In this document: one piece after another, positions 3,707 to 53,017 of the stretch | Layout of the letters: every line of letters begins with the position of its first letter | Numbering within the stretch: the stretch's first letter is position 1 | From: a virus | Virus record (IMG/VR): IMGVR_UViG_3300020419_001305 | Span: 14,285 to 78,284 of that record | Direction: 5' to 3' (one strand) | DNA length: 64,000 nucleotides | Program-made: the position numbers and the translations under genes | The notes under the pieces: model-generated | What the model saw: the letters and a program-made list of their open reading frames with translations, nothing else | Told to the model about the DNA's origin: nothing | Database searches by the model: none

Positions 3707-4288
3707 ATGAGTTTAGAATCTTTAACACAAGCGTCACATCAGAACGCTGACAGAACGGAATTTGCTCGAGAGAAGATGGCCGGTAATTTGACTGAAGAAA
3801 AGTATAAAACTTTTTTATGGAATACTTACTTGGTATATGATATCTTAGAAGATGTAGCATCTAGCATGGGAGCATTTGCGCCTATGGATCCTTCTATGCC
3901 AGCTGATGATTTACCGCTTGATGGATTAAAACAAGCAGATGATATCCTAGCTGATTTTGTTGAGCTAGGTGGTAACCCAGATAGTCCTCCTACAGAAGTA
4001 CAAGCAACTGAGGATTATAGAAATCATATCGTGAAGAACATACAACATGATAAGCAAAAGTTAATTGCTCATCTGTATGTGAATCATATGGCAGATTTAA
4101 CTGACGGACCAACATTAGTAAAAAAAGTACCAGGTTCAGGAAAAATGTACAAGTTTGAAGAAATGAATCACTCTATAGAAGAGATGAAGGAACTTCTTTC
4201 AAGACGTGTTTCTGAAGGTGATGCTATAGAAGCTAACATTGGTTTCGGATTCAGAACACAACAGTACGAACAGTTAAACGCACTATAA
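3707..4288 (+). CDS. Heme oxygenase-like protein (divergent distal helix)
   Basis: Proximal His in SHQNADR; AHLYVNHMADLTDG; GSGKMYKF; EANIGF; directly upstream of a bilin reductase. Confidence 0.8.
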   Translation: MSLESLTQASHQNADRTEFAREKMAGNLTEEKYKTFLWNTYLVYDILEDVASSMGAFAPMDPSMPADDLPLDGLKQADDILADFVELGGNPDSPPTEVQATEDYRNHIVKNIQHDKQKLIAHLYVNHMADLTDGPTLVKKVPGSGKMYKFEEMNHSIEEMKELLSRRVSEGDAIEANIGFGFRTQQYEQLNAL

Positions 4289-4289
4289 A

Positions 4290-4973
4290 ATGATTTGGGA
4301 TAGGCTGGTTGAATGCCAGGACCAAATCATTAAACTGTTCGATCATCACGGAACTGAGATAAATGAACCAGGAATGGATCATTTTAATCAACCAGATAGC
4401 GGATGGATTAACAGAGTCTGGGCGAACGACGATATCAGAAGAGCTCATATAGACGTAGTAGATGCTAGAGGTTCAAAAGGCCTTTGGATGATGCACGTCT
4501 GTGTATTTCCTCAACTTAACAACAATGGACCAATTTATGGCTTTGATGTTATATCAGGAAAAAGTAAAATGACAGGAGCCTTTCATGATTTTTCAGCAAG
4601 TTCAGGTGGCGAAGATCATCCAATGGTTCAGTGGTATCAAGATGAAGTAAAAGACTTTATTCCAGAAAAACAAAGAGAACTTCCGGAATGGGCAACAAAC
4701 ATTTTTACTCCTAGCATGATTGCGGCAAGTAATGTTAGAGAAGAAGAAGCATCAGTTATCATTCAAATTGCTTTAGACAATCTTTTCACATATCTTGATA
4801 CCATTGGTGAACACACTGGTGAAGGTGACAGAGATTTAACCTTAGCTAGTCAAAATTATTATTGCCATAATCAGCAACAGAATCCACATACGCCTAGAGT
4901 AATGAAATCCTTAGGATTAAATGAAACTGACGTAGAAAAATTCTGTACTGATATGTTATTTCCAAAAAGTTAA
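4290..4973 (+). CDS. Ferredoxin-dependent bilin reductase (PcyX/PcyA-like)
   Basis: RRAHIDVVD, MMHVCVFP, PIYGFD, GAFHDFS, RELPEWA..IF, QNYYCHNQQQNPHTPRVM. Confidence 0.88.
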   Translation: MIWDRLVECQDQIIKLFDHHGTEINEPGMDHFNQPDSGWINRVWANDDIRRAHIDVVDARGSKGLWMMHVCVFPQLNNNGPIYGFDVISGKSKMTGAFHDFSASSGGEDHPMVQWYQDEVKDFIPEKQRELPEWATNIFTPSMIAASNVREEEASVIIQIALDNLFTYLDTIGEHTGEGDRDLTLASQNYYCHNQQQNPHTPRVMKSLGLNETDVEKFCTDMLFPKS

Positions 4974-8534: not shown

Positions 8535-8651
8535 AGCCCTCACGCTCTGCAATTTTATTTAGCTTAGATTTCACTTTTAAGCTAGACAAATCTTTTGCCC
8601 TATTAAATACATAAAAAGCAGATATTGCTAACCCAAAAAAAGGACTTAAAG

Positions 8652-12392: not shown

Positions 12393-12609
12393 TAATAAAT
12401 GTATGGTAACCTGTACAGATAACGACAAAGTGGCAGAAGCTGAAGTAGACCATTTAATTGATAAAGACAGACTTACAATCTTTCTTGCCCAAAATAAGAT
12501 CCATATGAAATATAACGGAAGTGTTTATGTTGGCAATCAGTTTGGTTATGAATTTACAACAAAAGGGCCAGTAGAATTAACAAAGATGAAAGGAAGAGGC
12601 GATGCCTAA
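12376..12609 (+). CDS. Hypothetical protein
   Basis: SD AAGGA before ATG 12376. Confidence 0.65.
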
Positions 12610-13186
12610 TTTAGTACCAGTAATTATTGAGAAAGAAGCAAGAGGAGAAAGAAGCTACGATATCTATAGTAGGCTTCTTAAGGATAGAATCATTATGTTA
12701 GACACAGATGTTAATAGCACCAGTGCCAGTTTAATTGTAGCCCAGATGTTATTCTTGGAATCAACTAACCCAGGCAAGCCTATTAATTTTTATATTAATT
12801 CGCCAGGAGGTAGTGTTACGGCAGGTATGAGTATATACGACACAATGCAATTTATTAAATCACCTATTCATACAACTGTGATGGGTATAGCGGCGAGCAT
12901 GGGAAGTTTCCTAGCAATGGCCGGTGAAAAAGGTAAAAGAGCAATTCTTCCACATGCTAGACATATGATACATCAACCAAGCGGTGGTGCGTCAGGGCAG
13001 GCAAGTGATGTAGAAATAAGATATAAAGAATTACAATATTGGAAAGAAACACTTACAGATATCTACGTAACACACACAGGTTTAGATAGAGAAAAAGTTG
13101 CCAAAGACATGGATAGAGATTTCTTTATGAGTGCGAAAGAATCGATAGAATATAATTTAGCTGATTTTATAGCAGAGAAAAAATAA
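12602..13186 (+). CDS. clpP: ATP-dependent Clp protease proteolytic subunit
   Basis: [31 protein letters not shown] (Ser), MIHQP (His), DRDFFMSA (Asp). Confidence 0.96.
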
Positions 13187-13617
13187 TGAAGATAATGGTA
13201 GATTTAAATAAAATTAACAGTGGCTTACATTGGACTACTTTGTATAGTGAAAAAATATTATTAGCTATAATAGGTATGTTAACAATGTTAGCGGCAGGAA
13301 TGGATATCTATAAGATGGTAATAGACTTAAAGGTCACTCTTGCTGATTTATTTTTACTTTTTATCTATGCTGAGATTATCGGCATGGTAGGAGCATTTTA
13401 TATCAGTAACAGAATACCTGTCACGTTACCTATTGTCATTGCCATGACGGCATTGTGTAGGCTAATTGTGTTACACAGTAAAGATGCTGATCCATGGGTG
13501 CTTATCGCAGAAGCAGGTGCTATATTAGTATTAGGCGGAGCCGCTTATATAATGAGTTACAAGGACAAATTAAGTTTAGAAAAAGAACAGTTAAGGAAAC
13601 AAAATGAATCTAGTTAA
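13186..13617 (+). CDS. PsiE-family phosphate-starvation-inducible membrane protein
   Basis: 4 TM; LADLFLLFIYAEIIGMV..IPVTLPIVIAMTALCR. Confidence 0.8.
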   Translation: MKIMVDLNKINSGLHWTTLYSEKILLAIIGMLTMLAAGMDIYKMVIDLKVTLADLFLLFIYAEIIGMVGAFYISNRIPVTLPIVIAMTALCRLIVLHSKDADPWVLIAEAGAILVLGGAAYIMSYKDKLSLEKEQLRKQNESS

Positions 13618-24104: not shown

Positions 24105-24808
24105 ATAAATTTATTTTTGATGTGGACGGAACACTCACACCTAGTAGACGGCAAATAGATGATGACTTTGCCGTTTTCTTTTCAGACTTCTGTGCTGAAA
24201 ATGATGTATATCTTGTTACTGGAAGTGATAGAGAAAAAACAATCGAACAGGTTGGAGAAGAAATATACAGTCTTGCTGATAGAGTTTACAACTGTTCTGG
24301 AAGTGATGTCTGGGAAGGAAATGTAAATGTTTATACAAGCGACTGGCAAATACCAGAAGAAGCAGAAAAATGGCTCAAGGGAGAATGTAGGTGTAGTGAA
24401 TTTCCTCTAAGGACAGGATTACATATTGAGAAAAGACCAGGTATGGTAAATTTCAGTGTTGTTGGTAGGAATGCTACAATGGGAGAACGTCAACTTTATG
24501 TTGAATGGGATACTAAAGAAAATGAACGAATTAAAATAGCTAAAGAATTCCAAAAGTTTTTTCCTGCTATCCAGGCAGTGGTAGGTGGTGATACTGGAAT
24601 TGATATTTTTCCGTATGGAAAAGATAAGGCCCAAATTATAAATGACTTTAATGAATTAGATGATACTTTACACTTTTTTGGAGATAGAATGGATCCTGCT
24701 GGAAATGATTATCCACTTAAGAAAGTAATACTTGACAACGATCTTGGTGTATGCTACAATGTAGAAGGTTGGAAACACACATGGAAGTTATTAAAAAAAC
24801 ATGACTAA
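24098..24808 (+). CDS. HAD-IIB hydrolase, eukaryote-type phosphomannomutase-like
   Basis: FDVDGTLTPSR, VTGSD, IEKRPGMVNFS, GGDTGIDI, DKA, FFGDRMDPAGNDY. Confidence 0.85.
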   Translation: MVDKFIFDVDGTLTPSRRQIDDDFAVFFSDFCAENDVYLVTGSDREKTIEQVGEEIYSLADRVYNCSGSDVWEGNVNVYTSDWQIPEEAEKWLKGECRCSEFPLRTGLHIEKRPGMVNFSVVGRNATMGERQLYVEWDTKENERIKIAKEFQKFFPAIQAVVGGDTGIDIFPYGKDKAQIINDFNELDDTLHFFGDRMDPAGNDYPLKKVILDNDLGVCYNVEGWKHTWKLLKKHD

Positions 24809-25832
24809 ACGTATAGGATTCGCATGTAAATACATGCACGAGAATCAAAACCAAAAAAAGAAAATATTAGAAGAAATACAAAGACCTTTGAATACAAGGT
24901 CAACAACTGTTGCTTGGTTAAATAGACAAACAAAAGAAGTAGCAGAAGAAAGATTATGGGATATTTGTAAACATAATATCCAATCATATTATAACTTGAT
25001 AAAGTATGTAGGAGGATTGCCACATGAGTTACGAATGGTTAGACTTGGTTCCGATGTATTGCCTGTTTATACTGAGCCTACTTGGGGCTATTTCTGGAAG
25101 TTACCTGATGTACGTAAATATTGCGAACAGGCTTTGGCACCAGTCGGTAAGTTGGCTCGCGATCTTGATGTACGCCTTAGTATGCACCCTGGTCAGTTTA
25201 CTGTCCTTGCTAGTGCTAGTGACGATATAGTTGAAAGAAGTATAGAGGAGTTTGAATATCATGTTGATGTCGCCAGATGGATGGGCTTCGGCCAGCAATT
25301 CCAAGATTTTAAGATCAATGTCCACATCTCCGGCCGTAAGGGTCCAGCCGGTATCCTCGACATCCACCCAAGATTATCTCCGGAGGCGAGAAACACAATT
25401 ACAATCGAGAACGACGAAAACTCGTGGGGGCTTGACGCAAGTCTTGAACTTGGACACAAACTCGCTTTGGTCCTCGACATACACCATCACTGGGTCAAAA
25501 CAGGTGAGTATATTAACCCCTCCGACGATAGATTTTCTCGCGTGATAGATAGCTGGCGTGGTGTACGTCCTGTTATACACTATTCTGTTTCTAGAGAAGA
25601 TTATCTTGTAGATTTTGATCCTAATACAAAACCCGTAATGGATACACTATTGCTTGAAGGTTACAAAAAACAAAAACTAAGAGCCCATAGTGATTTTATG
25701 TGGAACAACTCAGTCAATGATTGGGCATTAAGTTTTTGGGAACACGCAGATATTATGGTAGAGAGCAAGGCTAAAAACCTAGCTAGTGAGAAGTTATTTC
25801 AACACTGGATGTCAACCACGCAACACTACTAA
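24801..25832 (+). CDS. uvsE: UV damage endonuclease
   Basis: RIGFAC, VRLSMHPGQFTVL, IENDE, LVLDIHHHW, PVIHYS, RAHSD, DIMVESKAK. Confidence 0.92.
   Translation: MTKRIGFACKYMHENQNQKKKILEEIQRPLNTRSTTVAWLNRQTKEVAEERLWDICKHNIQSYYNLIKYVGGLPHELRMVRLGSDVLPVYTEPTWGYFWKLPDVRKYCEQALAPVGKLARDLDVRLSMHPGQFTVLASASDDIVERSIEEFEYHVDVARWMGFGQQFQDFKINVHISGRKGPAGILDIHPRLSPEARNTITIENDENSWGLDASLELGHKLALVLDIHHHWVKTGEYINPSDDRFSRVIDSWRGVRPVIHYSVSREDYLVDFDPNTKPVMDTLLLEGYKKQKLRAHSDFMWNNSVNDWALSFWEHADIMVESKAKNLASEKLFQHWMSTTQHY
25024..25230 (+). CDS. Candidate overprinted two-TM protein in +1 frame of uvsE
   Basis: AGGAGG (25010-25015) 8 nt before ATG; two long hydrophobic segments. Confidence 0.45.
   Translation: MSYEWLDLVPMYCLFILSLLGAISGSYLMYVNIANRLWHQSVSWLAILMYALVCTLVSLLSLLVLVTI
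25261..25545 (+). CDS. Candidate overprinted Ser/Thr-rich protein in +1 frame of uvsE
   Basis: AGAGGAG (25244-25250) 10 nt before ATG; coincides with a GC-rich patch. Confidence 0.4.
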   Translation: MLMSPDGWASASNSKILRSMSTSPAVRVQPVSSTSTQDYLRRRETQLQSRTTKTRGGLTQVLNLDTNSLWSSTYTITGSKQVSILTPPTIDFLA

Positions 25833-25839
25833 ATACAGT

Positions 25840-26400
25840 ATGCGTTTTTTAGAAATACAAGACTGCCAAAGAACCAAGGCTAGGACATGTCAATGTAAAG
25901 ATATTGAAAAAATATCTGAAGATGTAGACATTCCGGTGGTAGCAATAAGTGATCTAGAACACTCCGATAAAGTCAAAGGTACTATATTATTCATGCAGAA
26001 GAAAGGTTCTCCTACTCTTATTAAAGGTAAAGTAACAGGATTAGAACCAGGAGCACATGGATTTCATATACACGAGTTCGGAGACCTAAGTCAAGGTTGT
26101 GAATCAGCAGGCGCCCATTATAATCCAGACGGTGTAGATCATGGCGATCTCGAAGATGGACATGTGGGAGATTTAGGAAACATCGAAGCAAACGAAGACG
26201 GCATTGCCGAATTTTCTTTTCCAGCAAAAAGAGTAGAATTGATTGGTGAAAGAAGTATTGTAGGTAGAGCTGTTGTCGTTCACAGTGATGAAGATGATCT
26301 AGGTAAAGGCGGAGACGCAGAAAGCCTTAAGACAGGTAACGCAGGCGACAGGTTAGCTTGTGGTGTTATTACCTTAACAAAAGGAGAAAATAATGATTAA
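25840..26400 (+). CDS. sodC: Cu/Zn superoxide dismutase
   Basis: HGFHIH, GAHYNP, HVGDLGN, GRAVVVH, GNAGDRLACG; start ATG 25840 after TAAATA. Confidence 0.95.
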   Translation: MRFLEIQDCQRTKARTCQCKDIEKISEDVDIPVVAISDLEHSDKVKGTILFMQKKGSPTLIKGKVTGLEPGAHGFHIHEFGDLSQGCESAGAHYNPDGVDHGDLEDGHVGDLGNIEANEDGIAEFSFPAKRVELIGERSIVGRAVVVHSDEDDLGKGGDAESLKTGNAGDRLACGVITLTKGENND

Positions 26401-26557
26401 ATGGTTAAAATCAAGAATCGAAGAACGTACTTCATGGGACGGCGCGGCCTTAATCCTAATGGGAGTTGTAGTTCTTATCGCGGGTCCATTCGCGAAGTTG
26501 GCGGCTTATGCGGCCATTGCCTATGGAATATGGACAATCTGGAAAAAAGAGAACTAA
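26393..26557 (+). CDS. Small membrane protein (54 aa)
   Basis: SD AAGGAG; MIKWLKSRIEERTSWDGAALILMGVVVLIAGPFAKLAAYAAIAYGIWTIWKKEN. Confidence 0.75.
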   Translation: MIKWLKSRIEERTSWDGAALILMGVVVLIAGPFAKLAAYAAIAYGIWTIWKKEN

Positions 26558-26841
26558 AGTTCGTCTATAGTAACTTTGGAATCAACGGGTAAATTTAATT
26601 TATTTCGTTGCTCCACTCCTTTACGTTGAGCAAAACGTTTAGGATCACAGGAAGGGCAAACGTGGACATAATAATCGTCAAGGCGTTTAGGATCTACTTT
26701 GCCCTTTTCTCTTCTAAACTCGTTATGGCACTCGTCACACTGAAAAATGGCATAACTACGTAGACGCTTGTAAGGATGGTTTTTTCCAGATTTACTTTTT
26801 CTAACGTAAAAACGTATTTCTTTTTCTATTCTTATGAACAT
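26554..26841 (-). CDS. Small Zn-finger-like protein
   Basis: CDEC..CPSC; TAAATA 4 nt before ATG on minus strand. Confidence 0.7.
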   Translation of the reverse strand: MFIRIEKEIRFYVRKSKSGKNHPYKRLRSYAIFQCDECHNEFRREKGKVDPKRLDDYYVHVCPSCDPKRFAQRKGVEQRNKLNLPVDSKVTIDEL

Positions 26842-26895
26842 ACTGTATTTATTTACGTTCGGATTATAAAAGATTACATAAATACTAAGGAGCAG

Positions 26896-27225
26896 ATGAT
26901 GTCAAACATTGTATTTTTAACAGATCAAGCTAAAACTCAAATGGTTTCAATGCTTGAAGAACATGCTAAACAGGCAGTAAGACTGTCCTTAAAAGGCGGA
27001 GGTTGTGCTGGCTTTAAATATGATTGGACATTAACTGACGAAGCAGAAAAGGACGATGAGGTTATAGAACTTCCAAAAGGTAAGTTTTTAATTGATCCAG
27101 CTAGTATTATGTACTTGATAGGATCAAAAGTAGATTACAAAAAAGAAGTTTTTGGATCATATTTTTCAATCGAAAATCCAGCTTCAACATCAAGTTGTGG
27201 TTGTGGAGAGAGCATAGGATTTTAA
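26896..27225 (+). CDS. A-type Fe-S cluster carrier (IscA/HesB family)
   Basis: GGGCAGFKY, GSKVDY, NP..SSCGCGES; SD AAGGAG. Confidence 0.9.
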   Translation: MMSNIVFLTDQAKTQMVSMLEEHAKQAVRLSLKGGGCAGFKYDWTLTDEAEKDDEVIELPKGKFLIDPASIMYLIGSKVDYKKEVFGSYFSIENPASTSSCGCGESIGF

Positions 27226-27228: not shown

Positions 27229-30200
27229 ATGGCAAGACAAGATATTTACTTAGGGGTTGAGGGTAACGACGGTACTGGTGATAGTATCCGCGAAGCGTTT
27301 AAAAAAGCTAACGAGAATTTTACAGAACTGTATGCTGTATTCGGGCAAGGCGGTACTATAAGTTTTACAGCTTTAAGTGATTCTCCTTCAGCTATTACAC
27401 CCAACGGAGTTTTAATTGGAAACACAACTGGTACAGAATTAATTGCGAAAACACTTACTGGTGGCACAGGAATATCTATAGATAATACCAGTTTAACAAA
27501 TATTACAATTACAAACACTGGTGCTAATATTAATGCTGATACAAGTCCTATTTTAGGAGGACCTTTAAGTGGTAATGCTGTATATCCTATAGGAAAGATA
27601 AACACATCTGCCGCGGCTATAGCAGAATTTAATTCAACACACGCATCACAAATTACTATTGATGACATTGTTACAGACAAAAAATACCAAGATAAAAATT
27701 ATGCACCACACACTATTACACAATCTAACAAATCTGTATATGCTAGAACAGAGCCAACTGATGATAATGAATACACACAAACAATTACAGAATATAGTTC
27801 AGGTAATGTTGTTATATCGGGTCACGGGTTTGATAACAGCTTCAATGGTACTCAGTGGAAATATTCTACTACAAATACAGCACCAAACGGTTTAACAAAT
27901 AATACAAATTACTTTATTAGATTTGTAAGTGAAAATCAAATTAGTTTACATACAAGTAAAGCAGAAGCACAAAACGATAACGATTTAACTAGAGTAAAAG
28001 TTAATATAGGTTTAGGAACTACAACTGCTGTCACAGGCACAGATGTAATTAAAGACCAAAGCTATAATGAAAGTCTATACGGTAATTACAGAGTAGACGA
28101 AGTAATGCCAAGAAACGCTTCAGTAAGAAGACAAGGCGATGAATTAGCAGGGTCACTTTACCTAGCAGACCATCCAGGATATCTAGCAGGCACTACAGGA
28201 CCAATAGAAGATAGACAAGCGGCAACTAAACTTTATGTTGATAACTCTTCTTATGCTTCTACAGAAGATCTATTTGTTACTAAACAAGGTGACGATACAC
28301 AGGCAAACACTCCAGTAGGATTTGAAGGTAGGGGTTTAAGTTATGCCTATGGTAGTTTAAAAGCGGCGGCCTTAAAGGCACAAGAAATTATGGAGTCAGC
28401 TCCTATTGAACCTGGTGCCTATAGACAAACTATTACATACAACGCAGGTGATAATATATCACTTGTTACACTAGCTGAAACAAAAACAACAAATGCTTTG
28501 GCAAAAAGTGCTATTAAATATTTACAAGGCAGTAAAAAGTTTGTACAGAAATCTGTTGTTGATTATGTAAAAGATAATTTCCCACAACATAGTTTCTTTG
28601 ACACTAATGTTATTAATAAAAATACAGAAAGTTTATTATTTAAAAATAAAAAGTTTATACAAGAAGAAGTAACAGCTTGGATCAACTATCAAATTAATAC
28701 AGGCGCTACAGTAAGTTATAGTGACGGTACAGCTAACTTTACAGGATTTAAATATAGTTCGGCAAAGTGTAAAAGAGATGTAGGCTATATTGTTGATGCT
28801 TGGGAAAATGACTTAGCTAGAGGCGGCAACATTGAAACAAGAAGAATAGCATCAAGCTATCTAGCTGGTGCTGTAAATGCTGTCAATAAAAATACATCTA
28901 ACGCAGGCAATACAGTTAATCAAATAGCACAAACAAATGCCGCACTTGAATTTGCTAGAGATCTTGTTAAAGATTATATTTTAACAGGAACAGCATATCC
29001 GACAAAACAAGGTTACTTCCAAGTTAACGCATCTAACTTAACAGCAAACGCATTTAGATTCTATATAGGTACATCATCATATGCTAATGTATATGTAAAC
29101 GGCGGAGTTGTTACTAAATCAGACGGGACGGCACTTAATGTAAGTAATTTTACCTATGATTATACAACAGGATTTGCTGATGTAACTACTACTACAACAC
29201 ACGGATTGTCCGCAGGTAACACAGTCCAATTAACAGGTGTAAATGTTAATTGTACTTACGATGGTGCTACTACAGAAAAAATATATCCAGAGCTAAACAG
29301 CCAAGCAAATTGTTATAAATTTGTAGTTCAAAATGCTGACTTCTTAGGAAATAGTCCTACAACTAACGGTTTCCAAATATATGTAGGACCTAGTAAATAT
29401 GCTCACACTTATATTAGTGGCGGTACAGCAAAAGGAAACCTAACAGAATTTTCACCAACAGGAGCAACATATAATCCAACAACTGGAGATATGGTAATTA
29501 CTATTGGAAGTCACAGCTTAACAACATCAAACACAATAGAAATAGAACCAAACAGTTTTACATTTACCTGTGCGAAAGATAATAATGCTACTCTTCATTC
29601 TTATCCAAGAAAAGAATCTGTTACATCATCACCAAGCAGTGATCCAGCATATAATACAGCTTTAGCAATTACGGCAGTTGGCGGAACAACAATTACAGTC
29701 AACGTAGGGATATCTTCAGATACAAGTGCACACACTTTTGTAGGTGCTAGAAGAAATGCTGTAAAATATTACACAGCAAACACAAGTATTTCAGGATTTA
29801 ATTACAGTAATACAAACGGGTATGCTACAGTAACAACGTCAAGTGCTCATGGACTAGTCGCAGGTAATAAAGTTGAATTAGCAGACATATATCTATCTTG
29901 TACTGCTCCTACAACAAGTAACACATATTACCCACAACCTATATATGGTGACTATGGAACAGGTAACAGTGACATTCCTACAAGAGCAACAGCATTAACA
30001 GAACTTATAGTTGATGTTATTGCCAACGGATTAGGTAAAGTTCCTGCTCCAGTACAACCGCAAAAATCTAATAACACCTGTGAAAGAGATTTAGGATTAA
30101 TAATCGATGGAATGATTATTGATATAAGGAACGGAACCAACTCTAACTTCAATGCCTTACAAGCGGCTAAGAGATACTTTAGTACACCAAGTGGAGCTAA

Positions 30201-33200
30201 AGCTAGAATAAGTCAAAAAGCAGAAACACTTGCGGCATTGACAAAAGCAAAATCATATGTTAGAAGTGTAGTTTCAAATACGGATTTAAAAAGACAATCA
30301 AGATTGTTTTCAGTTGAAAGTGCCAACTTAACTACAACACAATTTCAAATTGCTGTAGGAACTTCGAATACAGTACACACTTATGTAAGAGGCGGAACAG
30401 TTACTTTTGGAAATACTGTCTTTACTATTAACAATTTTTCATATAATAATGTTACAGGAAAAGGATTAATTACTACAACTACAGCACATGGATTAACAAC
30501 AGGTAATGTTGTACAGATTGATGATGTAGTATTTGAATGTAATACTGGTATAAAAGAATATCCTGGAGAGTTTTCAACAGATATTCCACAATACTTAGAT
30601 AGTACATTAACAACAGTATCAGATACCATTAAAAATGCTTTAGACAACCAATTTGATATTATTATAGACATTTTAACAAATGGATTTACAGCAGTTGATA
30701 CTTATACCGTAGTAGAAGGTAGTACATATAAAATACAATTTAGTAATGGTGGATCAAACTATTATACTGATCAAGGTATAAACAGCAACGTAGATATACT
30801 TCCAGGAAAAATTATTGTAGGTAAAACTACCGGAGCAAGAGGTAGAATTGTAAAATATACAAGTGGTGTAGATTTAGGTAATGTTGCCTACGACGAAGTA
30901 GAAGTAGTATTAGTTGAACCAAAAGAATTTAGAATCGGTGAGGAACTAGAGTATGGTAATGGAACAAAAGAGAAACAAATTTGTATCCATGTAGAATCAG
31001 GAATATACTACGAAGATTATCCAATCAAAGTTCCGGATAACGTTTCTATTAAAGGTACAGACTTTAGACGTTGTCAAATTAGGCCGGCTCCTAGAATTTC
31101 TCAATCACCTTGGGCTAAAACTTATTTTTATAGAGATAAACTTTTAGACAACTTACAAATTACAGACTTTACCGGAGCCGATATTGCTACGGCACAAGAT
31201 ATTACGCTTACAGGAATAAATGAAGCAGGTGGAATTATCACTGTTAGTCCAGCAGATAATATTGCTCCTATCGCTTGGGACGGTGCTTGGTTCTATACAG
31301 ATAACGGCGCAGTTGGATTAATTTCAAATGCTGATGGCGGAAGTGATTTTAATGTTACTTTGACTGTAGACATTTTACCAAACTTAGGTACAATAAGTGC
31401 AGGTGCTTGGCACGTTAAGAAAACTGTAAATTACGGATATCACTATCTAACTGATCCAGGAGACGCAACCAGTGTAGCAAAACGTAACGATCAAATGGAC
31501 GTATTCTTAATGAATGATGCTACAAGGTTAGCAAACATGTCATTCCAAGGACACGGTGGATTTGCTCAGGTACTTGACCCAGCAGGACAGGTTCTAATTA
31601 AATCTCCATATACACAGGTTTGTGGAAGTTTCTCAGGTAGTGCTAACAAACAAGCATTTAGAGGTGGTATGTTTATTGATGGTTTCTCAGGAAACTTAGA
31701 AACTGTTATCACAAGTAAAGATGACAATTATACACTTAATGTTCAATCAGCGGCTGGCACAGGTTTAAGAGTTAGAAGACCACAAACACCAGCACCGTTC
31801 TTTATAAACGGAGTAAGATACCAAGTTGATGCTATTTCAGAATATGATGGCGGAGCAGGTACTGCCAAACTGTTAATTAATAAACTATCAAATGGCGGAA
31901 GTGGTTATTCAGATGCTATACCAGGAGGCGGTACAAACATCTTTATTCAAACTGCTGGTAACAGAAGTATGTTGGCAAACGACTATACTCAGGTTAACGA
32001 TTTAGGTTATGGATTATTTGTTAACAACGCAGGACTTTCAGAACAAGTTTCAACTTTTACATATTATAACCACATTGCTTTCTTTAGTAATAATGGTTCA
32101 GAAATTAGAGCCCTTAACTGTTCTAACGCAAATGGTAACTTTGGTTTAGTTGCGGCAGGATCAGATCCAAACGAAACTGTTGATGCTATCACATCTATTA
32201 GAACTATGCAACAACCAGCAAAAGTTTATAACGATGCTAGTAACACTTACGGCTTTGGTGCTATTTCACATGCGGCAGGTGTTAACACAATCCATTTATA
32301 TGATTGTGATTATCATCCTTATCCGAACAGTTTAATTGATGTATATGAAAGAGATGGTAGTGGCAATATTACGGCACTAAACACTTACGAAGTTACAGCA
32401 GTATCAGTCTTATCAGTACCTACTTCAAACTCAGGAGGGTACAGTGGTGCTACAGGTCCTACGGGACGTAAAGGTGCTAACTTACCAATTTACAGATTAA
32501 ATATTTCAGGAGATACTGGACTAGCAAGTGCTATAACAGGAAATCATAATCCTTCATTGGCATCAGATGCTTCATCATATGTGATAATGAGAATGAACAA
32601 GAATCACTTGTTCTCAGGTGTATCAGGTGTGACAAGTATACGACCTTCAACAGCATTAATATTTGATGAGAATCCAGGAAGAGTATACAGAACAATTAGT
32701 TTTAACAATCAAGATTCTGATAATAGTGCATTAGCGGCAGATAGATTCCAAATTGTTTTTGATTCAGGATTTAGTCATTTAAATCTTACAGTAAATCAAA
32801 CAGAGGCAGTAAACAATACATACGCTGGTTCTGGAACAACAATGGGTGCGACAGTAGGTGACGTTGTCATTGCTATCGAAAAACTTACTGCTACTGGTAT
32901 AGCTAGAATTAACAACAACGATATGATTATGGCTTGGGGTGGTAAATTACACCAAGTTACAAATTATACAGATAGAACAACATTTGCCACAGTACAACTA
33001 GGTGATGTTGCGGCATCAAACATTAACAGTGACAGTGGATTATTCAGTGGAGCAGGTATAGCTAAAAAAGTTTACAGCGCCGGTGGAACCACTGCTATAA
33101 CATTAACATTATCATTAGCAGGAAACGAAGCCGCTAATATTACAGTTGGTATCTCAACACTTAGAGCAAACGGACACGACTTTGATAAAATAGGTACTGG

Positions 33201-35112
33201 TGGATTTAATACAACTAACTATCCAAGTATTATTTACGGTGAGCCTGTTAATGCGGCTACCCAAGCAAATGAGGTTGTTGAAAGAGGAAAAGGAAGAGTA
33301 TTCTTTGCCTCAACTGACCAAGACGGATTCTTTAGAATTGGTAAGTTCTTTAGTGTAGACCAAGGAACAGGTACAGTTACATTCGCGGCAAGCATAGCAA
33401 TCAGTAACTTAGACGGACTAGGATTTAAACAAGGTGTAAGAATTACAGAATTCAGTAATGACGACACTATGTCAGATGCTGATCCAGCGGCAGTTCCAAC
33501 TGAATTTGCAACTGAATCGTTTACTACAAGAAGGTTACACTTTGACCGCGGCGGCATACTACAAACAGTAGGAACCATAGGTCCAGGTGTTGTTGCTAGA
33601 GATGGTACAACGCCATTGACAGGAAATTTAAGTGCTGGTAGCTTTAAAATATTTAACCATGCTGATCCAACTAACCAACAAGATGTAACAACTAAATCTT
33701 ATGTAGATGCTAGAACACCTTTTGGTAGTGAAGCAATAGGAGTTAATATTGCTAACAGAGCAACAAACGATTTCTTAGTTTGGAATGGATCCAGTTATGA
33801 TAACGCTAGTCCGGCAGGTGATATTGGTATAAGCGTTGTTGGTAACATTGCTACGTTTTCAATTACCGCAGATAGTATTGTTAACGCAGACGTTAACACT
33901 AATGCCGCAATAGCTCAAAGCAAGTTGGCAATGAATGCCGCAAGTACAAGGGCTAACGCAACAGGTATTACACAAGCCGACTTAGGATTAGCAAGTTTTG
34001 ATTCAGGTGACTTTACTGTTACTAACGGATTTGTTACATTAAAAGAAGGTAGTGTTGATTACTCAGACTTACCTGATATGGCAACTAAAACAGTTTTAGC
34101 TAACATCACAGGTGGAACAGCAGATACGGTTGCAGTTACAATTGACGACTTAGTTGATAACTACAGTAAATTTACAACCACTGGTGTTGCTTCTAGAATT
34201 GTTAAGACTGGAACAGATGGTAGTATTGACACACAAAAATTAAAATTAGATAACTATGAAGTTTTAGATCAAACTAACTTAACAATGACACTTAAGACAC
34301 CTGGTGGTGCTAAAGTGTTTGATACTGTTGGATCTGTACCAAGTAATACTACAACAACATATCCTGGTTCAATACAAATTGGTGGAACAGATACAACACC
34401 ATCTTTCTTCCAAAAGAATAGTAGTTATGGAGATCCAAGTGATGCTACTCTTAATGAACCAAGACTAGCAAGTGATTGGGTGTATACTTCGTTTATTGAA
34501 GCACCTGGAGAAAAAGGAGCTTCGTCAACTGGTATTGCTGTTGGAGCTGGTACAGGATTTACAGCGGCAGGTGAGATAGCAATTATAGCAAACAATAACG
34601 TAGCGGCTATCAAGTTTACACAAACAGCGGCAAGTCCTTCAAGTAATAACGGTTATGCTTTAGGAACATCAGCTTTAAGATACTCAACTGTATATGCCAC
34701 AGCATTAGATGGGTTGGCTACATCAGCAAAATATGCTGACTTGGCAGAGAATTATCTAGCAGATGCGGAATACGAAGTAGGAACTGTTTTGATCTTTGGT
34801 GGTGAACAGGAACTTACAACGACAGATATGAAAGGTGATACCAAAGTAGCAGGAGTTGTTTCGGAAAATCCAGCACACTTGATGAACAGTCAACTAGAAG
34901 GCGATCATGTAACACCGTTAGCATTACAAGGTAGAACTCCTTGTAAGGTAATTGGACAAGTTAAAAAAGGTGACATGATAGTTACAAGTGCTATAGCAGG
35001 GTATGGTATGGTAAACAACGTACCAGGTATAGGAACAATAATTGGTAAAGCAGTGGGCACAAAAGATGATGACGGACACGGCATTGTTGAAGTTGTGATA
35101 GGGAGAGTATAA
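27229..35112 (+). CDS. Giant tail fibre/baseplate structural protein (2627 aa)
   Basis: N-terminal gp9/gp10-like NDGTGDSIREAFKKANENFTELY; internal repeats; C-terminal YADLAENY..GTVLIFGG..GVVS.NPAHLMN intramolecular-chaperone-like domain. Confidence 0.85.
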   Translation: MARQDIYLGVEGNDGTGDSIREAFKKANENFTELYAVFGQGGTISFTALSDSPSAITPNGVLIGNTTGTELIAKTLTGGTGISIDNTSLTNITITNTGANINADTSPILGGPLSGNAVYPIGKINTSAAAIAEFNSTHASQITIDDIVTDKKYQDKNYAPHTITQSNKSVYARTEPTDDNEYTQTITEYSSGNVVISGHGFDNSFNGTQWKYSTTNTAPNGLTNNTNYFIRFVSENQISLHTSKAEAQNDNDLTRVKVNIGLGTTTAVTGTDVIKDQSYNESLYGNYRVDEVMPRNASVRRQGDELAGSLYLADHPGYLAGTTGPIEDRQAATKLYVDNSSYASTEDLFVTKQGDDTQANTPVGFEGRGLSYAYGSLKAAALKAQEIMESAPIEPGAYRQTITYNAGDNISLVTLAETKTTNALAKSAIKYLQGSKKFVQKSVVDYVKDNFPQHSFFDTNVINKNTESLLFKNKKFIQEEVTAWINYQINTGATVSYSDGTANFTGFKYSSAKCKRDVGYIVDAWENDLARGGNIETRRIASSYLAGAVNAVNKNTSNAGNTVNQIAQTNAALEFARDLVKDYILTGTAYPTKQGYFQVNASNLTANAFRFYIGTSSYANVYVNGGVVTKSDGTALNVSNFTYDYTTGFADVTTTTTHGLSAGNTVQLTGVNVNCTYDGATTEKIYPELNSQANCYKFVVQNADFLGNSPTTNGFQIYVGPSKYAHTYISGGTAKGNLTEFSPTGATYNPTTGDMVITIGSHSLTTSNTIEIEPNSFTFTCAKDNNATLHSYPRKESVTSSPSSDPAYNTALAITAVGGTTITVNVGISSDTSAHTFVGARRNAVKYYTANTSISGFNYSNTNGYATVTTSSAHGLVAGNKVELADIYLSCTAPTTSNTYYPQPIYGDYGTGNSDIPTRATALTELIVDVIANGLGKVPAPVQPQKSNNTCERDLGLIIDGMIIDIRNGTNSNFNALQAAKRYFSTPSGAKARISQKAETLAALTKAKSYVRSVVSNTDLKRQSRLFSVESANLTTTQFQIAVGTSNTVHTYVRGGTVTFGNTVFTINNFSYNNVTGKGLITTTTAHGLTTGNVVQIDDVVFECNTGIKEYPGEFSTDIPQYLDSTLTTVSDTIKNALDNQFDIIIDILTNGFTAVDTYTVVEGSTYKIQFSNGGSNYYTDQGINSNVDILPGKIIVGKTTGARGRIVKYTSGVDLGNVAYDEVEVVLVEPKEFRIGEELEYGNGTKEKQICIHVESGIYYEDYPIKVPDNVSIKGTDFRRCQIRPAPRISQSPWAKTYFYRDKLLDNLQITDFTGADIATAQDITLTGINEAGGIITVSPADNIAPIAWDGAWFYTDNGAVGLISNADGGSDFNVTLTVDILPNLGTISAGAWHVKKTVNYGYHYLTDPGDATSVAKRNDQMDVFLMNDATRLANMSFQGHGGFAQVLDPAGQVLIKSPYTQVCGSFSGSANKQAFRGGMFIDGFSGNLETVITSKDDNYTLNVQSAAGTGLRVRRPQTPAPFFINGVRYQVDAISEYDGGAGTAKLLINKLSNGGSGYSDAIPGGGTNIFIQTAGNRSMLANDYTQVNDLGYGLFVNNAGLSEQVSTFTYYNHIAFFSNNGSEIRALNCSNANGNFGLVAAGSDPNETVDAITSIRTMQQPAKVYNDASNTYGFGAISHAAGVNTIHLYDCDYHPYPNSLIDVYERDGSGNITALNTYEVTAVSVLSVPTSNSGGYSGATGPTGRKGANLPIYRLNISGDTGLASAITGNHNPSLASDASSYVIMRMNKNHLFSGVSGVTSIRPSTALIFDENPGRVYRTISFNNQDSDNSALAADRFQIVFDSGFSHLNLTVNQTEAVNNTYAGSGTTMGATVGDVVIAIEKLTATGIARINNNDMIMAWGGKLHQVTNYTDRTTFATVQLGDVAASNINSDSGLFSGAGIAKKVYSAGGTTAITLTLSLAGNEAANITVGISTLRANGHDFDKIGTGGFNTTNYPSIIYGEPVNAATQANEVVERGKGRVFFASTDQDGFFRIGKFFSVDQGTGTVTFAASIAISNLDGLGFKQGVRITEFSNDDTMSDADPAAVPTEFATESFTTRRLHFDRGGILQTVGTIGPGVVARDGTTPLTGNLSAGSFKIFNHADPTNQQDVTTKSYVDARTPFGSEAIGVNIANRATNDFLVWNGSSYDNASPAGDIGISVVGNIATFSITADSIVNADVNTNAAIAQSKLAMNAASTRANATGITQADLGLASFDSGDFTVTNGFVTLKEGSVDYSDLPDMATKTVLANITGGTADTVAVTIDDLVDNYSKFTTTGVASRIVKTGTDGSIDTQKLKLDNYEVLDQTNLTMTLKTPGGAKVFDTVGSVPSNTTTTYPGSIQIGGTDTTPSFFQKNSSYGDPSDATLNEPRLASDWVYTSFIEAPGEKGASSTGIAVGAGTGFTAAGEIAIIANNNVAAIKFTQTAASPSSNNGYALGTSALRYSTVYATALDGLATSAKYADLAENYLADAEYEVGTVLIFGGEQELTTTDMKGDTKVAGVVSENPAHLMNSQLEGDHVTPLALQGRTPCKVIGQVKKGDMIVTSAIAGYGMVNNVPGIGTIIGKAVGTKDDDGHGIVEVVIGRV

Positions 35113-37457: not shown

Positions 37458-39062
37458 ATGAGTGAAAAAGAATATGTTGTTACCTTAAACAAAGGTGTTG
37501 ACTATAGTGAATTTAATCAAGAAATGATTGCTTCGACTGGAGCAGGAGATATTCCGAATAGAACTGTAGACGTTGCTGACCCTAGAGCTTTATCAACAAG
37601 AAACACGCACTATGCTCTTACAGATGCTGAAGCAGTCGCTTTACGCAGTGATAGTAGAGTTACTGATGTACAGCTACGTCCTGAAGATAGAGATGATATT
37701 GAAATTGGATATGATGCTGTTCAAACAGCTAATTTTAATAAGTCATCTTCTGATTCGGGCGATTACAGAGACTGGGGTAAAATAAGACATAGCTTTGTAG
37801 AAAACAAATATGGAACATCAACTTCTTTAAGTTCTAATCCATTTGATAGACCTTATTCAATGGACGGCACTGGTGTTGATATTGTTATACAAGATAGCGG
37901 TCTCCAAGTAGACCATCCTGAATTTAATGATGCCAGCGGAGTATCAAGAGTACAGCTAATTGATTGGTATTCAGAATCAGGAATATCTGGTTCACAAAGT
38001 GTTAACCATTACAGAGACTATGATGGACATGGTACACATTGTGGAGGAACAGCAACTGGATTAAACTTTGGTTGGGCTAATAATTCAAAAGTATATAGTG
38101 TAAAAGTAAGTGGTTTAGAAGGTAGTGGAGATAGTGGCGGTATTAGTACAAGTTTATGCTTTGATGTAATCAAAGGTTGGCATCAAAATAAACCAGTAGA
38201 TCCAAAGACAGGATATAAAAGACCTACTATAGTAAATGCTAGTTGGGGTTACAGCGGAAATATAGGACAAAGTTTTTCTAACATAGAAAGCTACGTCTAT
38301 AGAGGAGTCACTTATAATTCAAGCACAGCTGGTTGGGATAGCACATCAACAGCATATCATAGAGACACATATGGATTTTATCCTTATTATAGATTTCCAG
38401 CTTACAGATATCCATTAAGGATTGCTTCTGTTGATGCTGATGTACAAGATTGTATAGATGCTGGCGTACATATTTGTATAGCCGCAGGTAATAATAGTTT
38501 CAAAGCAGATACTTCTGTAGGACCAGGAGTGGATTACAATAATGTAATTTTTTGGAGTGGTGGTTCAAACAACTTCTATCATAGAGGTAGTTCTCCTTTT
38601 GATGAAGGAGCCAATATGGTAGGTTGTACAGATAGCACTCCTGAAAACGCAACAACAGAAAGAAAGACCAGTTTCAGTACAACAGGACCAGGAGTAAGTA
38701 TTTTTGCCGCTGGTGAAAATATAATGAGCTGTTTCAGTACAACAAATAGATATACTGATGGTGCGTACTTTGGGAATAGTAGTTTTAGAGTAGGAAACAT
38801 AAGCGGAACATCAATGGCATCACCACAGGTATGCGGAGTGGGTGCTTTATATTTACAAGCTGATCCTAGCTTAACTCCAGCTCAATTAAAAAGTAAATTA
38901 GAAAATGATGCCTTGGCAGTCTTGAAAGACGAATCAAATAACGCTAACTACGGTGACACAACAGATATATGTGGTGCTGAAAACAGAATGTTATTTAATA
39001 GATACAATAGAGCTAATCCTTATACCAGTAACATATACGGTATGAGAAAAAAGAATAGGTAA
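37458..39062 (+). CDS. Subtilisin-like S8 serine protease in tail module
   Basis: VIQDSG (Asp), HGTHCGG (His), AAGN, GTSMASPQV (Ser). Confidence 0.9.
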   Translation: MSEKEYVVTLNKGVDYSEFNQEMIASTGAGDIPNRTVDVADPRALSTRNTHYALTDAEAVALRSDSRVTDVQLRPEDRDDIEIGYDAVQTANFNKSSSDSGDYRDWGKIRHSFVENKYGTSTSLSSNPFDRPYSMDGTGVDIVIQDSGLQVDHPEFNDASGVSRVQLIDWYSESGISGSQSVNHYRDYDGHGTHCGGTATGLNFGWANNSKVYSVKVSGLEGSGDSGGISTSLCFDVIKGWHQNKPVDPKTGYKRPTIVNASWGYSGNIGQSFSNIESYVYRGVTYNSSTAGWDSTSTAYHRDTYGFYPYYRFPAYRYPLRIASVDADVQDCIDAGVHICIAAGNNSFKADTSVGPGVDYNNVIFWSGGSNNFYHRGSSPFDEGANMVGCTDSTPENATTERKTSFSTTGPGVSIFAAGENIMSCFSTTNRYTDGAYFGNSSFRVGNISGTSMASPQVCGVGALYLQADPSLTPAQLKSKLENDALAVLKDESNNANYGDTTDICGAENRMLFNRYNRANPYTSNIYGMRKKNR

Positions 39063-46494: not shown

Positions 46495-47169
46495 ATGGGT
46501 AAAAGTGTTTATGATATAATAAAAAGACGTAAACATGTGGTTCATTACGACATGAATCAAATTCCATCAAAAGTAGAGATAGAGAAATGTTTAAGAGCGG
46601 CATGGTCAATGACTCCTTCAAAACAAAACTGCCATCCTTATAGTATTAATATATTAGGTCCAGAACACAAAGAACAAAAAATTAAACTATGGAATTTAGT
46701 AAAAGGTAATCATTATACAATGGAAGAAAAAGGTGTACAAGTAGGAATGATAGACTCAGTAAGCGGTAGACCTAATCCTTACTATTATCATATAAAGATA
46801 AATCCTTACACACTTATCATTACACCAAGACTAATTTTAAAACAAAATGAACATTATACAAGGCAGATTAAAGGGGGACATTACATGGAGCAAATGGACC
46901 CTGTTAGAATGGAGAGCAGAAAAGATATAGATTCAATTTCAGTTGAAGTAGGATTTTTCTGTGCGAATCTATGTGCTTTATTGATGGAAAGAGGATTAGA
47001 TATAAGTTATACAAATTGCTTTCCAAGACGTTTAGAATATTGGAAAGAGTTTCCTTTTTTAAAGTATGCTCCTGTTCTACTAGTTAGTATAGGAAAGGCT
47101 GAACATTATAGAGGACTTGTTGAAGGAGATACGAAAGCACCCTTTAAAGATATAATAGAATGGAGATAG
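46495..47169 (+). CDS. Nitroreductase-like flavoprotein
   Basis: IIKRRKHV..AAWSMTPSKQNCHPY..ERGLDISY. Confidence 0.65.
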   Translation: MGKSVYDIIKRRKHVVHYDMNQIPSKVEIEKCLRAAWSMTPSKQNCHPYSINILGPEHKEQKIKLWNLVKGNHYTMEEKGVQVGMIDSVSGRPNPYYYHIKINPYTLIITPRLILKQNEHYTRQIKGGHYMEQMDPVRMESRKDIDSISVEVGFFCANLCALLMERGLDISYTNCFPRRLEYWKEFPFLKYAPVLLVSIGKAEHYRGLVEGDTKAPFKDIIEWR

Positions 47170-48017: not shown

Positions 48018-48931
48018 AGGAACTTTGGGTAGAAAAATATAGACCAAAAGATGTCAAAGGCTATGTGTTCCGAGATGAACATCAACGTAAACAAGTTGAA
48101 CAATGGATCAAAGACGGAACTATTCCGCACTTGCTATTTTCAGGAAATGCTGGTATTGGTAAAACTACCCTTGCTAAGATATTACTCAATCAACTAGAAG
48201 TAAATGATTTAGATGTATTAGAAATTAATGCTAGTAGGACTAATAGTGTAGAAGACGTTAGAGATAAGGTTGTAAACTTTGTACAAATGATTCCTTTTGG
48301 AGAATTTAAAGTTGTACTATTAGATGAAGCAGATTATCTAAGTCCAAACGCACAAGCGGCATTGCGTGGTGTAATGGAAGAATATCATACGACAAGTAGG
48401 TTCATACTTACTTGTAACTATCCAAATAGGATTATTCCGGCACTCCATAGTAGATGCCAAGGCTTTCATATTGAAAGAATTGATCAAACTGAGTTTACTG
48501 CCCGTGTAGCAGAAATACTTATTGCTGAAGAAATTACTCCAGATATTGATACATTAGATACATACGTAAAGGCAACATATCCTGACTTACGTAAGTGTAT
48601 AAATATGGTACAAATGAATAGTGTCAGTGGTGAATTAGTTCCACCAGAAAAAAGCGACACTGGAGAAAGCGATTGGAAACTTGAAATGACTGAACTGTTT
48701 AAAGCAGGTCAGATTTCAAAAGCAAGAAAATTAGTTTGTAGTCAGGCCCGCCCTGAGGAGATCGAAGACGTGTACAAGTGGTTATATGACAACATTGATT
48801 TGTTTGGTGATGAAGCAAAGCAGGAAAGTGCTATTCTAATCATTAAACAAGGACTTGTTGATCATACACTTGTATCTGATCCAGAGATAAATCTAGCGGC
48901 AACTATGATTAGACTAGCAAGGATGAAATGA
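48014..48931 (+). CDS. Clamp loader AAA+ subunit (RFC small/gp44-like)
   Basis: [33 protein letters not shown]. Confidence 0.93.
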
Positions 48932-49278
48932 CATACCTAGTTACTGAGGATTGTATTAAATGTAAACATATGGATTGCGTAGAAGTATGTCCTGTGGACT
49001 GTTTTTACGAGGGTGAAAACATGCTAGTAATACATCCAGACGAATGTATTGATTGCGGAGTATGTGAACCAGAATGTCCTGTTGATGCTATTGTTCCAGA
49101 TGCGAATTTAGAAGGTACTGAATTAGATTATTGGATGAAAATTAATACAGACATGTCTAACAAGTGGCCAAACATCACAGAAGTAAGGTCCGATGATGTA
49201 CCTGCTGATGCTAAAGAATGGGCAGGCAAACCTAATAAGAGAGAACTTTTATCCTTTGAGCCTGGTAAAGGTGATTAA
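48928..49278 (+). CDS. fdxA: Dicluster ferredoxin (FdxA/FdI type)
   Basis: [29 protein letters not shown]. Confidence 0.92.
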
Positions 49279-50134: not shown

Positions 50135-50800
50135 ATGGAAGTAAAATTAATAAGCTATTCACAGCCTGTGGAAAATTTAACAGCTCGGCATCTTATAGAT
50201 GCTCAGGACTTAATTGCCTTTTGTGCTAGGGTAAGTAATCCTTCTAACCAAATGAACACAGAGACTAGTGAAAAGCTAATAAAATATCTAGTAAAACATA
50301 AACATTGGTCACCATTAGAAATGGTAAGTGCTTGTTTAGAAATTAAAACAACACGTGATATAGCACACCAAATTGTAAGACATCGAAGTTTTAGTTTTCA
50401 AGAATTTAGTCAGCGATACGCCGATCCTGAAGCACAAGGAGATATGTTTGAGTATAGCGAAGCTAGACTACAAGATACAAAGAACAGACAAAACTCTATT
50501 GAAGTAGAAGACAAAAAACTTCAACAGGAATGGGATTGGGCACAAAGACGTATTGCTGTATTAGCCAAAAAGGAATACGACTGGGCTATCAAAAAGGGTA
50601 TAGCTAAAGAACAAGCCAGAAAAGTTCTTCCTGAAGGAATTACCAAAACAACACTTTACATGAATGGAACCCTAAGAAGTTGGGCCCATTACATTGAATT
50701 ACGTGGCGCTAACGGTACCCAAAAAGAACATATGGATATTGCTCACGCTTGTGCCAGCGTCATCAGTAACATCTTTCCTTTGGTTGACGAACTAAACTAG
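50135..50800 (+). CDS. thyX: Flavin-dependent thymidylate synthase
   Basis: HWSPLE, QIVRHRSFSFQEFSQRY, EQAR.VLP, LRSWAHY. Confidence 0.95.
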   Translation: MEVKLISYSQPVENLTARHLIDAQDLIAFCARVSNPSNQMNTETSEKLIKYLVKHKHWSPLEMVSACLEIKTTRDIAHQIVRHRSFSFQEFSQRYADPEAQGDMFEYSEARLQDTKNRQNSIEVEDKKLQQEWDWAQRRIAVLAKKEYDWAIKKGIAKEQARKVLPEGITKTTLYMNGTLRSWAHYIELRGANGTQKEHMDIAHACASVISNIFPLVDELN

Positions 50801-52873: not shown

Positions 52874-53013
52874 TGACTAATTGCCAAAACTGCGGCCACG
52901 AATCACATTGTGGTACACCCTTGTACAAGGACATGATAGACGGCGATAATCGACAAGTAAATATAGAAGTATGCAAACAATGTAGATGTGAAGTTTGCCA
53001 AAAAAAGGATTAG
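52873..53013 (+). CDS. Small Cys-rich metal-binding protein (46 aa)
   Basis: GTG overlapping upstream stop; MTNCQNCGHESHCG..VCKQCRCEVC. Confidence 0.65.
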   Translation: MTNCQNCGHESHCGTPLYKDMIDGDNRQVNIEVCKQCRCEVCQKKD

Positions 53014-53017
53014 ACTA

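Follow-up and report, generated by a model that had tools for sequence, protein, structure and literature searches.

In cyanobacteria and algae, phycobiliproteins are known to serve as soluble subunits of the light-harvesting antenna. Here, we analysed a stretch of 64,000 nucleotides of phage DNA (hereafter the window), which spans positions 14,285 to 78,284 of a 78-kb IMG/VR virus record, IMGVR_UViG_3300020419_001305 (G000:C1:14285-78284; G+C 35%). The window encodes a giant fibre protein (P0001) containing two Cys-x-Arg-Asp (CxRD) segments, together with a heme oxygenase, a bilin reductase of the PcyX type and a ferredoxin. As judged from their sequences, the CxRD segments are copies of a phage-specific module of ~140 amino acids in which the residues of the phycobiliprotein bilin site stand in register. 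The fibre is a candidate acceptor for the pigment made by PcyX, which it may bind.

The fibre gene and its modules

The features of the fibre gene are as follows.

27229..35112, + strand: giant tail-fibre or baseplate-fibre gene (P0001), an open reading frame (ORF) of 2627 aa with matches to PHROG tail-fibre families
28468..28596, + strand: partial extra copy of the first long helix of the module, aa 414-456 (family profile positions 13-55, E 6.7e-7)
28546..29073, + strand: module copy 1, aa 440-615, globin core at about aa 459-592 (family profile E 4.7e-44)
28768..28779, + strand: Cys514-Lys-Arg516-Asp517, aligned with Cys84-x-Arg86-Asp87 of phycocyanin alpha
29989..30363, + strand: module copy 2, aa 921-1045, N-terminally shortened and more divergent (family profile positions 36-152, E 4.6e-26)
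30079..30090, + strand: Cys951-Glu-Arg953-Asp954, aligned with Cys84/Arg86/Asp87 and kept in 13 orthologues

By homology and by its neighbouring tail and baseplate genes, P0001 is a phage tail or baseplate fibre protein. It matches the tail-fibre families phrog_9851, phrog_5342, phrog_17885 and phrog_19602 (E 8e-48 to 4e-14) and, weakly, the tail fibre gp9 in the PDB. Downstream of it come genes for an Ig-domain protein, for a subtilase and for proteins whose N-termini resemble those of T4 gp9/gp10. The subtilase gene (Peptidase_S8, E 9e-29; 37458-39062) lies amid tail-fibre genes; possible functions of its product are the processing of fibres and an attack on the surface of the host.

Two CxRD motifs are present in P0001, against 0.023 expected from its own composition, and both are kept in 13 of 13 orthologues examined (63-90% identity). 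The first-pass annotation had pointed to three segments of this protein, namely a helix starting with AIKYLQ (from aa 428, nt 28510) and the segments around Cys514 (nt 28768) and Cys951 (nt 30079), and we found all three at these places. It had also regarded the segment at Cys951 as a second copy of the Cys514 domain. A hidden Markov model (HMM) of the family agrees with this, and identifies copies 1 and 2 as homologous copies of one helical module of ~140 aa. A self-comparison of P0001 with blastp revealed no internal repeat at E<=0.01, and the two copies are linked only through the family HMM. Copy 2 is devoid of the first quarter of the module and retains C951, R953 and D954 in addition to the later Asp, Tyr and Thr of the family. 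In contrast, the proposal that the AIKYLQ...DNFP helix (aa 428-452) corresponds to the phycocyanin B helix of the Cys514 domain had to be abandoned, as this helix lies in the partial extra copy upstream, a match that also occurs in orthologous contigs. Both a PDB profile alignment and hhalign instead place the equivalent of the phycocyanin B helix at aa 465-488. A third copy, suspected by eye near aa 1115-1165, received no support from the family HMM.

Relation to the phycobiliprotein fold

In phycobiliproteins, the bilin is held by a triad of residues: Cys84 forms the thioether, Arg86 binds the propionate and Asp87 binds the pyrrole. Four partly independent tests (Pfam, a PDB profile search, hhalign and the superposition of a predicted structure) agree in connecting the phage module with these proteins. 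Homology is therefore likely, and we consider the module to be, with high probability, a remote and phage-specific relative of the phycobiliprotein branch of the globin fold.

The curated cut-off of the phycobiliprotein family PF00502 (22.2 bits) is passed in the multi-copy homologues P0056, P0062 and P0096 (27.9, 31.0 and 36.9 bits, profile positions 34-150), and precomputed Pfam labels on homologues already gave PF00502. When single module copies were compared with PF00502, 7 of 85 matched at E<=0.01; copy 1 alone, searched against Pfam, did not match PF00502 at this threshold. A profile of 85 diverse module copies (A2) was then compared with all PDB sequences. All 22 matches at E<=10 were phycocyanin alpha chains, and in the best of them, 6jpr_A (E 0.0015), the Cys of the family falls on Cys84. 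Moreover, hhalign aligned A2 to CpcA/CpcB, taken from the genes on the Acaryochloris marina plasmid pREB3, with a probability of 82.5% (E 9.8e-6) over 92 columns extending from helix B to helix G. The helix E motif K-C-x-R-D-[VI]-G-Y...G-G was aligned in register with Cys84, Arg86 and Asp87. Thus, both the profile search and hhalign uphold the earlier statement that the KCxRD segments keep the bilin-attaching Cys and the Asp.

The AlphaFold 2 (AF2) model of copy 1, computed with A2, has a predicted local distance difference test score (pLDDT) of 78.7 and a predicted template modelling score (pTM) of 0.71. We compared this model with 48,161 PDB representatives using VIA-align, which is independent of Foldseek. 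The top match was far-red allophycocyanin (8or7_A; Z 9.5, root mean square deviation (rmsd) 3.4 Å, 111 residues), followed by photocobilin (Z 9.4), a phycobilisome subunit (9.3), phycoerythrin (8.6) and ApcE (8.6), while heme globin sensors and RsbR stood lower (Z 7.2-7.8). A second look with VIA-align, on the list provided by Foldseek, gave 114 chains with Z>=8. All were phycobiliproteins, the best being cryptophyte and cyanobacterial ones with Z up to 9.8 (rmsd 2.9 Å, 110 residues) and rmsd of 2.5-3.0 Å over 103-110 residues. The best superpositions begin near residue ~31 of the phycobiliproteins, and the first 20 residues of the model have a pLDDT <60. The model also contains a short beta-hairpin between the B helix and the Cys-bearing helix (window 28600-28760, aa ~494-503, model residues 55-64). 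It occupies the position of the loop preceding Cys84 in phycocyanin alpha, and most other module copies are without these residues. A search of the ESM Atlas gave no usable match.

Several results weigh against reading the fibre as a biliprotein, and the first of them concern the fold itself. The copies of P0001 alone gave no match to PF00502 even at E<=10. With Foldseek, the copy 1 model had no PDB match at E<=0.001; phycobiliproteins ranked first, with a best E-value of 0.22. In VIA-align, Z-scores of 9-10 can be reached by unrelated helical bundles through their common arrangement. The AF2 model of copy 2 is poor (pLDDT 67, pTM 0.45), and a wide structure search with it reached no more than Z 4.1 without matching any fold. 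Sequence homology to copy 1 is therefore the basis on which a fold is assigned to copy 2. The structural check that had been proposed, AlphaFold followed by Foldseek, therefore gave a divided answer. The globin/phycobiliprotein fold of copy 1 was recovered with VIA-align (Z 9.5-9.8), whereas the Foldseek result was not significant and copy 2 matched no fold.

These data could suggest that the likeness is convergent or due to chance, the module being an unrelated helical bundle that shares a short motif with phycobiliproteins. The missing Pfam match of the copies of P0001, the best Foldseek E-value, a PDB profile E-value of only 0.0015, an hhalign probability of 82% rather than >95% and the frequency of Z ~9 among helical bundles would all be in accordance with this view. 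However, four methods with different inputs lead to the same family and to the same register, all 22 of the 22 PDB sequence matches are phycocyanin alpha, and the 92 columns covered by hhalign extend beyond the motif. We thus consider a chance resemblance to be very improbable.

Distribution of the module and of the bilin genes

To describe the family, aa 365-615 of P0001 were compared with 1.84 billion representative proteins. Most of the 730 matches were giant proteins, in which as many as 35 separate stretches were matched. An iterated HMM over 270 fetched giant homologues yielded 2346 copies. These are distributed over 262 proteins, in part as tandem arrays, and a single protein may contain as many as 36. 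One homologue, P0014, carries the NCBI label 'Euryarchaeota archaeon'. At a mean identity among copies of ~21%, the residues equivalent to Cys514, Arg516 and Asp517 are conserved in 97%, 96% and 99% of the 2346 copies, respectively. Further conserved positions are Asp528 (99%), Tyr544 (98%), Thr569 (88%) and Asn534 (84%). Of about 2240 full copies, 2087 have all five residues of the C-R-D-D-Y pentad, and 40% of all Cys residues in the 270 giant homologues fall within CxRD. No second Cys is conserved in the module. The attachment residue singled out by the first-pass annotation is thus conserved among homologues, in both modules of the 13 orthologues as in the family at large.

A lone Cys that is 97% conserved, faces oxygenated sea water and stands beside bilin-gripping residues is best explained by a conserved chemistry. 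The triad may have been kept because it still holds a linear tetrapyrrole. We tentatively suggest that each module carries one such pigment covalently bound at the conserved Cys, a proposal to which we give somewhat less than an even chance. Alternatively, the module could bind another ligand, for instance a host-surface molecule recognised in a pocket, or the Cys could have another chemistry, as a redox switch or in a disulfide or thioether between chains by which the trimeric fibre is locked. The presence of one invariant Cys per module, adjoining invariant charged residues, would be compatible with such a function; the location in a receptor-recognising fibre fits ligand recognition, and the carriers infect very different hosts. 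However, the Arg and Asp beside the Cys are precisely the bilin-binding pair, the module offers no second conserved Cys for an intradomain disulfide, and we know of no precedent for such chemistry within the phycobiliprotein family. This alternative seems improbable to us.

Carriers of the module are found in very different phages. A tblastn search of 50,697 deposited phage genome records with two different module copies matched 191 and 203 records, all of them Synechococcus or Prochlorococcus phages except one with an organism name starting with 'Marine'. The hosts of these cyanophages are rich in bilins. In their annotations, the genes that contain the module appear as short tail fibre, gp7 baseplate wedge or structural protein. 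Carriers also include the present non-cyanophage clade and freshwater jumbo phages. By contrast with this abundance in phages, the module is virtually absent from cells. In 596 Gb of prokaryote genomes, five stretches matched the core motif KC[EK]RDVGY, and a single relative emerged. It lies on a 7960-bp contig (JBBAKF010000091.1) of a Polynucleobacter sp. metagenome-assembled genome (MAG), probably a phage contig binned into the MAG. The tblastn search of plasmids with the module returned only noise. Stand-alone proteins consisting of the single domain are practically absent, the search for them having given only 12 short fragments.

The genes that could supply a pigment are located elsewhere in the window.

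3707..4288, + strand: heme oxygenase, 193 aa (PF01126, 55.3 bits against a cut-off of 23, profile positions 7-138 of 204)
4290..4973, + strand: PcyX-type ferredoxin-dependent bilin reductase (FDBR), 227 aa (PF05996, 60 bits; 5owg_A, E 9.3e-84, full length)
48928..49278, + strand: FdxA-type (7Fe-like) ferredoxin, a possible electron donor (Cys motifs; PF00037 (Fer4) and PF11953 (DUF3470))

All three had been recognized in the first-pass annotation, and our searches corroborate them while defining their types. The heme oxygenase reaches 55.3 bits with PF01126. The adjacent reductase is a true PcyX, since it matches 5owg_A over its full length with E 9e-84, compared with about 1e-14 for PcyA. The ferredoxin is of the bacterial FdxA type, and the plant-type 2Fe-2S family PF00111 had no match in the window. 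PcyX is the phycoerythrobilin-making type of reductase (PMC11480375). The purpose of the heme oxygenase and PcyX in phages of non-cyanobacteria has been described as open, in line with the earlier remark that the destination of the bilin is unexplained, and a bilin-binding globin resembling the bilin biosynthesis-associated globins (BBAGs) is one of the possibilities named (PMC11480375, 2024).

The source is an uncultured marine phage, T4-like and of jumbo size. CheckV estimates a completeness of 22% for the 78-kb record and of 73% for a relative of 262 kb, which leads to a genome of ~350 kb. The closest cultured PcyX, with 55% identity to that of the window, is the reductase of Pelagibacter phage Mosig, and searches for psbA and CpeT were negative for 47 module-bearing records as well as for five relatives measuring 96-262 kb. 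For these reasons the host is probably not a cyanobacterium, and a cyanophage is unlikely.

The gene content of the window was also surveyed. Just upstream of the fibre gene (24801-27225) are damage-defence genes encoding a UvdE UV endonuclease, a Cu/Zn superoxide dismutase (SOD) and an IscA/HesB-like Fe-S assembly protein. The IscA/HesB-like gene stops 4 nt short of the fibre start, and a peroxiredoxin gene lies further upstream (8625-9188). The heme oxygenase and PcyX genes stand among stress and iron genes, namely those for SOD, peroxiredoxin, the IscA-like protein and 2-oxoglutarate (2OG)-Fe oxygenases. A near-complete proteolysis and chaperone set comprises ClpS (3348-3662), ClpP (12602-13186), a ClpA-like ATPase (58535-60796), DnaJ (57634-58479) and Hsp20 (2776-3300), the first three being 40-45% identical to their jumbo-phage counterparts. 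Other auxiliary genes encode PsiE (phosphate starvation; 13186-13617), a nitroreductase-like protein (46495-47169), ThyX (50135-50800), an endolysin with GH19 and peptidoglycan-binding domains (52988-53866) and a member of the IMPDH/GMP-reductase family (1658-2707).

Close PcyX homologues were found on at least 294 viral contigs, and 15 of the 31 longest PcyX-bearing contigs carry the module. In 12 of the 13 contigs that extend at least 32 kb downstream from PcyX, the module is present, and its distance from PcyX is 27-40 kb. Ten ordinary contigs with <20 kb downstream are without it, and the 262-kb contig G052, which also has <20 kb downstream of PcyX, holds three module copies elsewhere. The contig G073, with PcyX and no module, was considered as a counter-example and set aside, because it holds no part of the fibre gene. 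As it is the sole exception, the module is present on 12 of 12 informative PcyX contigs.

It also counts against the biliprotein reading that co-occurrence in the PcyX clade is syntenic inheritance in one lineage and not a series of independent events. Beyond this lineage, the heme oxygenase and FDBR were present in only 3 of 47 longer module-bearing viral records, all close relatives. In G040, a genome of 331 kb and 93% completeness with 21 copies, searches found no heme oxygenase, FDBR, CpeT or psbA. Its copies lie in two ORFs of 3594 and 2809 aa, and the loci recorded for this genome are at G040:C1:141905-151063 and 32664-33998. Conversely, Pelagibacter phage Mosig, a complete genome with heme oxygenase and PcyX, has no module even at E<=1. 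Mosig possesses proteins homologous to aa 1-132 and to aa 1573-2103 of P0001. In this phage (EXVC030M; MT647606.1 39650-44735), a ferrochelatase and four 2OG-Fe(II) oxygenase genes precede the heme oxygenase and PcyX genes, which are directly followed by neck genes. The expected co-occurrence of the module with bilin genes thus holds within the PcyX lineage (12/12 contigs) and fails beyond it (3/47 records, G040 and Mosig).

A bilin lyase was another point to consider, and none had been visible in the first-pass annotation. T- and S-type lyases (PF06206 and PF09367) were not found in the 78-kb record, which is incomplete and in which E/F-type lyases were not searched. PF06206 was likewise not found in the five relatives, one of them 73% complete, or in the 47 module-bearing records, all of these being incomplete.

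These observations raise the possibility that the module is a purely structural element without pigment, i.e. a globin bundle derived from phycobiliproteins and used as a rigid spacer or knob in fibres. The Cys, the Arg, the two Asp and the Tyr would then form an internal polar network fixing the fold or an inter-chain contact in the fibre. The heme oxygenase and PcyX would serve iron release from heme, the production of antioxidant bilins or host manipulation. The occurrence of the module in many phages without bilin genes, near-complete G040 included, the retention of heme oxygenase and PcyX by Mosig without the module and the failure to find a lyase all support this explanation. So do the tandem arrays of up to 36 copies, which resemble building blocks, the invariant D528, N534, Y544 and T569, for which no phycobiliprotein counterpart is known, and the position of the heme oxygenase and PcyX genes amid those for SOD, peroxiredoxin, an IscA-like protein and 2OG-Fe oxygenases. 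However, packing alone hardly explains a lone Cys kept at 97% in oxygenated sea water, and the conserved residues match exactly, and in register, the triad that contacts the bilin. Moreover, globin-fold domains without a cofactor (RsbR, colicins) scored below the bilin-binding globins. We regard a pigment-free module as a serious possibility, though one short of an even chance.

A possible biliprotein fibre and known bilin-binding systems

If the module does bind a pigment, the following sequence of events can be proposed. In the phage studied here, phycoerythrobilin would be produced from host heme by the phage heme oxygenase and PcyX, with electrons delivered by the phage FdxA or by a host ferredoxin. 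The heme oxygenase and PcyX genes are adjacent and FdxA is encoded in the same window, which favours this proposal, as do the 12 of 12 informative PcyX contigs with the module and, among deposited phage genomes, its confinement to phages of bilin-rich cyanobacteria (one record named 'Marine' aside). Because no lyase was found, we propose an autocatalytic attachment like that of ApcE and the BBAGs, which would occur inside the infected cell while the fibre folds. The released particle might then bear a few dozen pigments on its fibres, and these could act in light-dependent adsorption, in photoprotection or simply in stabilisation of the fold. In its full form, this proposal makes the phage particle itself a biliprotein, with PcyX-made phycoerythrobilin self-attached at Cys514 and Cys951 and with the cyanophage members of the family loading host bilins likewise. 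We consider this complete version rather unlikely.

Searches of the full-text literature gave no paper that describes domains resembling phycobiliproteins in the structural proteins of phages. What appears to be new is a diverged branch of the phycobiliprotein fold, with an intact pigment site, in thousands of phage fibre modules. In the window, the module occurs together with a heme oxygenase, a ferredoxin and a true PcyX, all encoded by one genome that is probably not that of a cyanophage. The open question of the purpose of heme oxygenase and PcyX can thereby be put to a simple test by co-expression, in which the residues concerned are defined. If pigment is bound, the fibre would be the long-sought acceptor of PcyX-made pigment in phages of non-photosynthetic hosts; the adsorption or stability of the virion might respond to light, and green-absorbing particles would be new phage biology. 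If it is not bound, the module would still be a clear example of how a fold used for light harvesting has been put to structural use.

With the alpha and beta subunits of phycobiliproteins (PF00502: C-phycocyanin, allophycocyanin, phycoerythrin and the bilin domain of ApcE), the module shares a globin-type helix core (Z 9.5-9.8, rmsd 2.5-3.4 Å, 103-111 residues). However, phycobiliproteins are free subunits of 160-170 aa, whereas the module occurs as a single unit or in tandem arrays within phage fibre proteins of 2000-6000 aa. It has no confident counterpart of the N-terminal X-Y helices through which the alpha-beta pair is formed. Features specific to the module are the beta-hairpin before helix E, seen in the copy 1 model, and the invariant D528, N534, Y544 and T569. 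Unlike phycobiliproteins, it is virtually missing from cellular genomes.

The BBAGs of heterotrophic bacteria are phycobiliprotein relatives outside cyanobacteria that are encoded with a reductase of the PcyA lineage and attach bilin to themselves without a lyase (Rockwell, Martin and Lagarias 2023, PMC10151467). This lyase-free self-attachment, which we compared by description only, is the mechanism that the present phage would need. However, BBAGs are stand-alone cellular proteins, whereas the phage module is located 23 kb from PcyX and inside a structural gene. The bilin-binding globin domain of photocobilin (8j2y, 8j2w) is the second-best structural match to copy 1 (Z 9.4, rmsd 3.4 Å, 102 residues), and is likewise a bilin-binding globin fused into a larger protein that is not an antenna. 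The identity is only 9-13%, and photocobilin is part of a B12 photoreceptor rather than a virion protein. Finally, an HO-PcyX cassette, in which HO stands for heme oxygenase, has been described in marine phages (Ledermann et al. 2016 and 2018, as cited in PMC11480375). As in that cassette (5owg), the heme oxygenase and PcyX genes of the window are adjacent, and the reductase matches with E 9e-84. The described cassette has no known acceptor in non-cyanobacterial phages, and the fibre module is a new candidate for this role, located outside the cassette.

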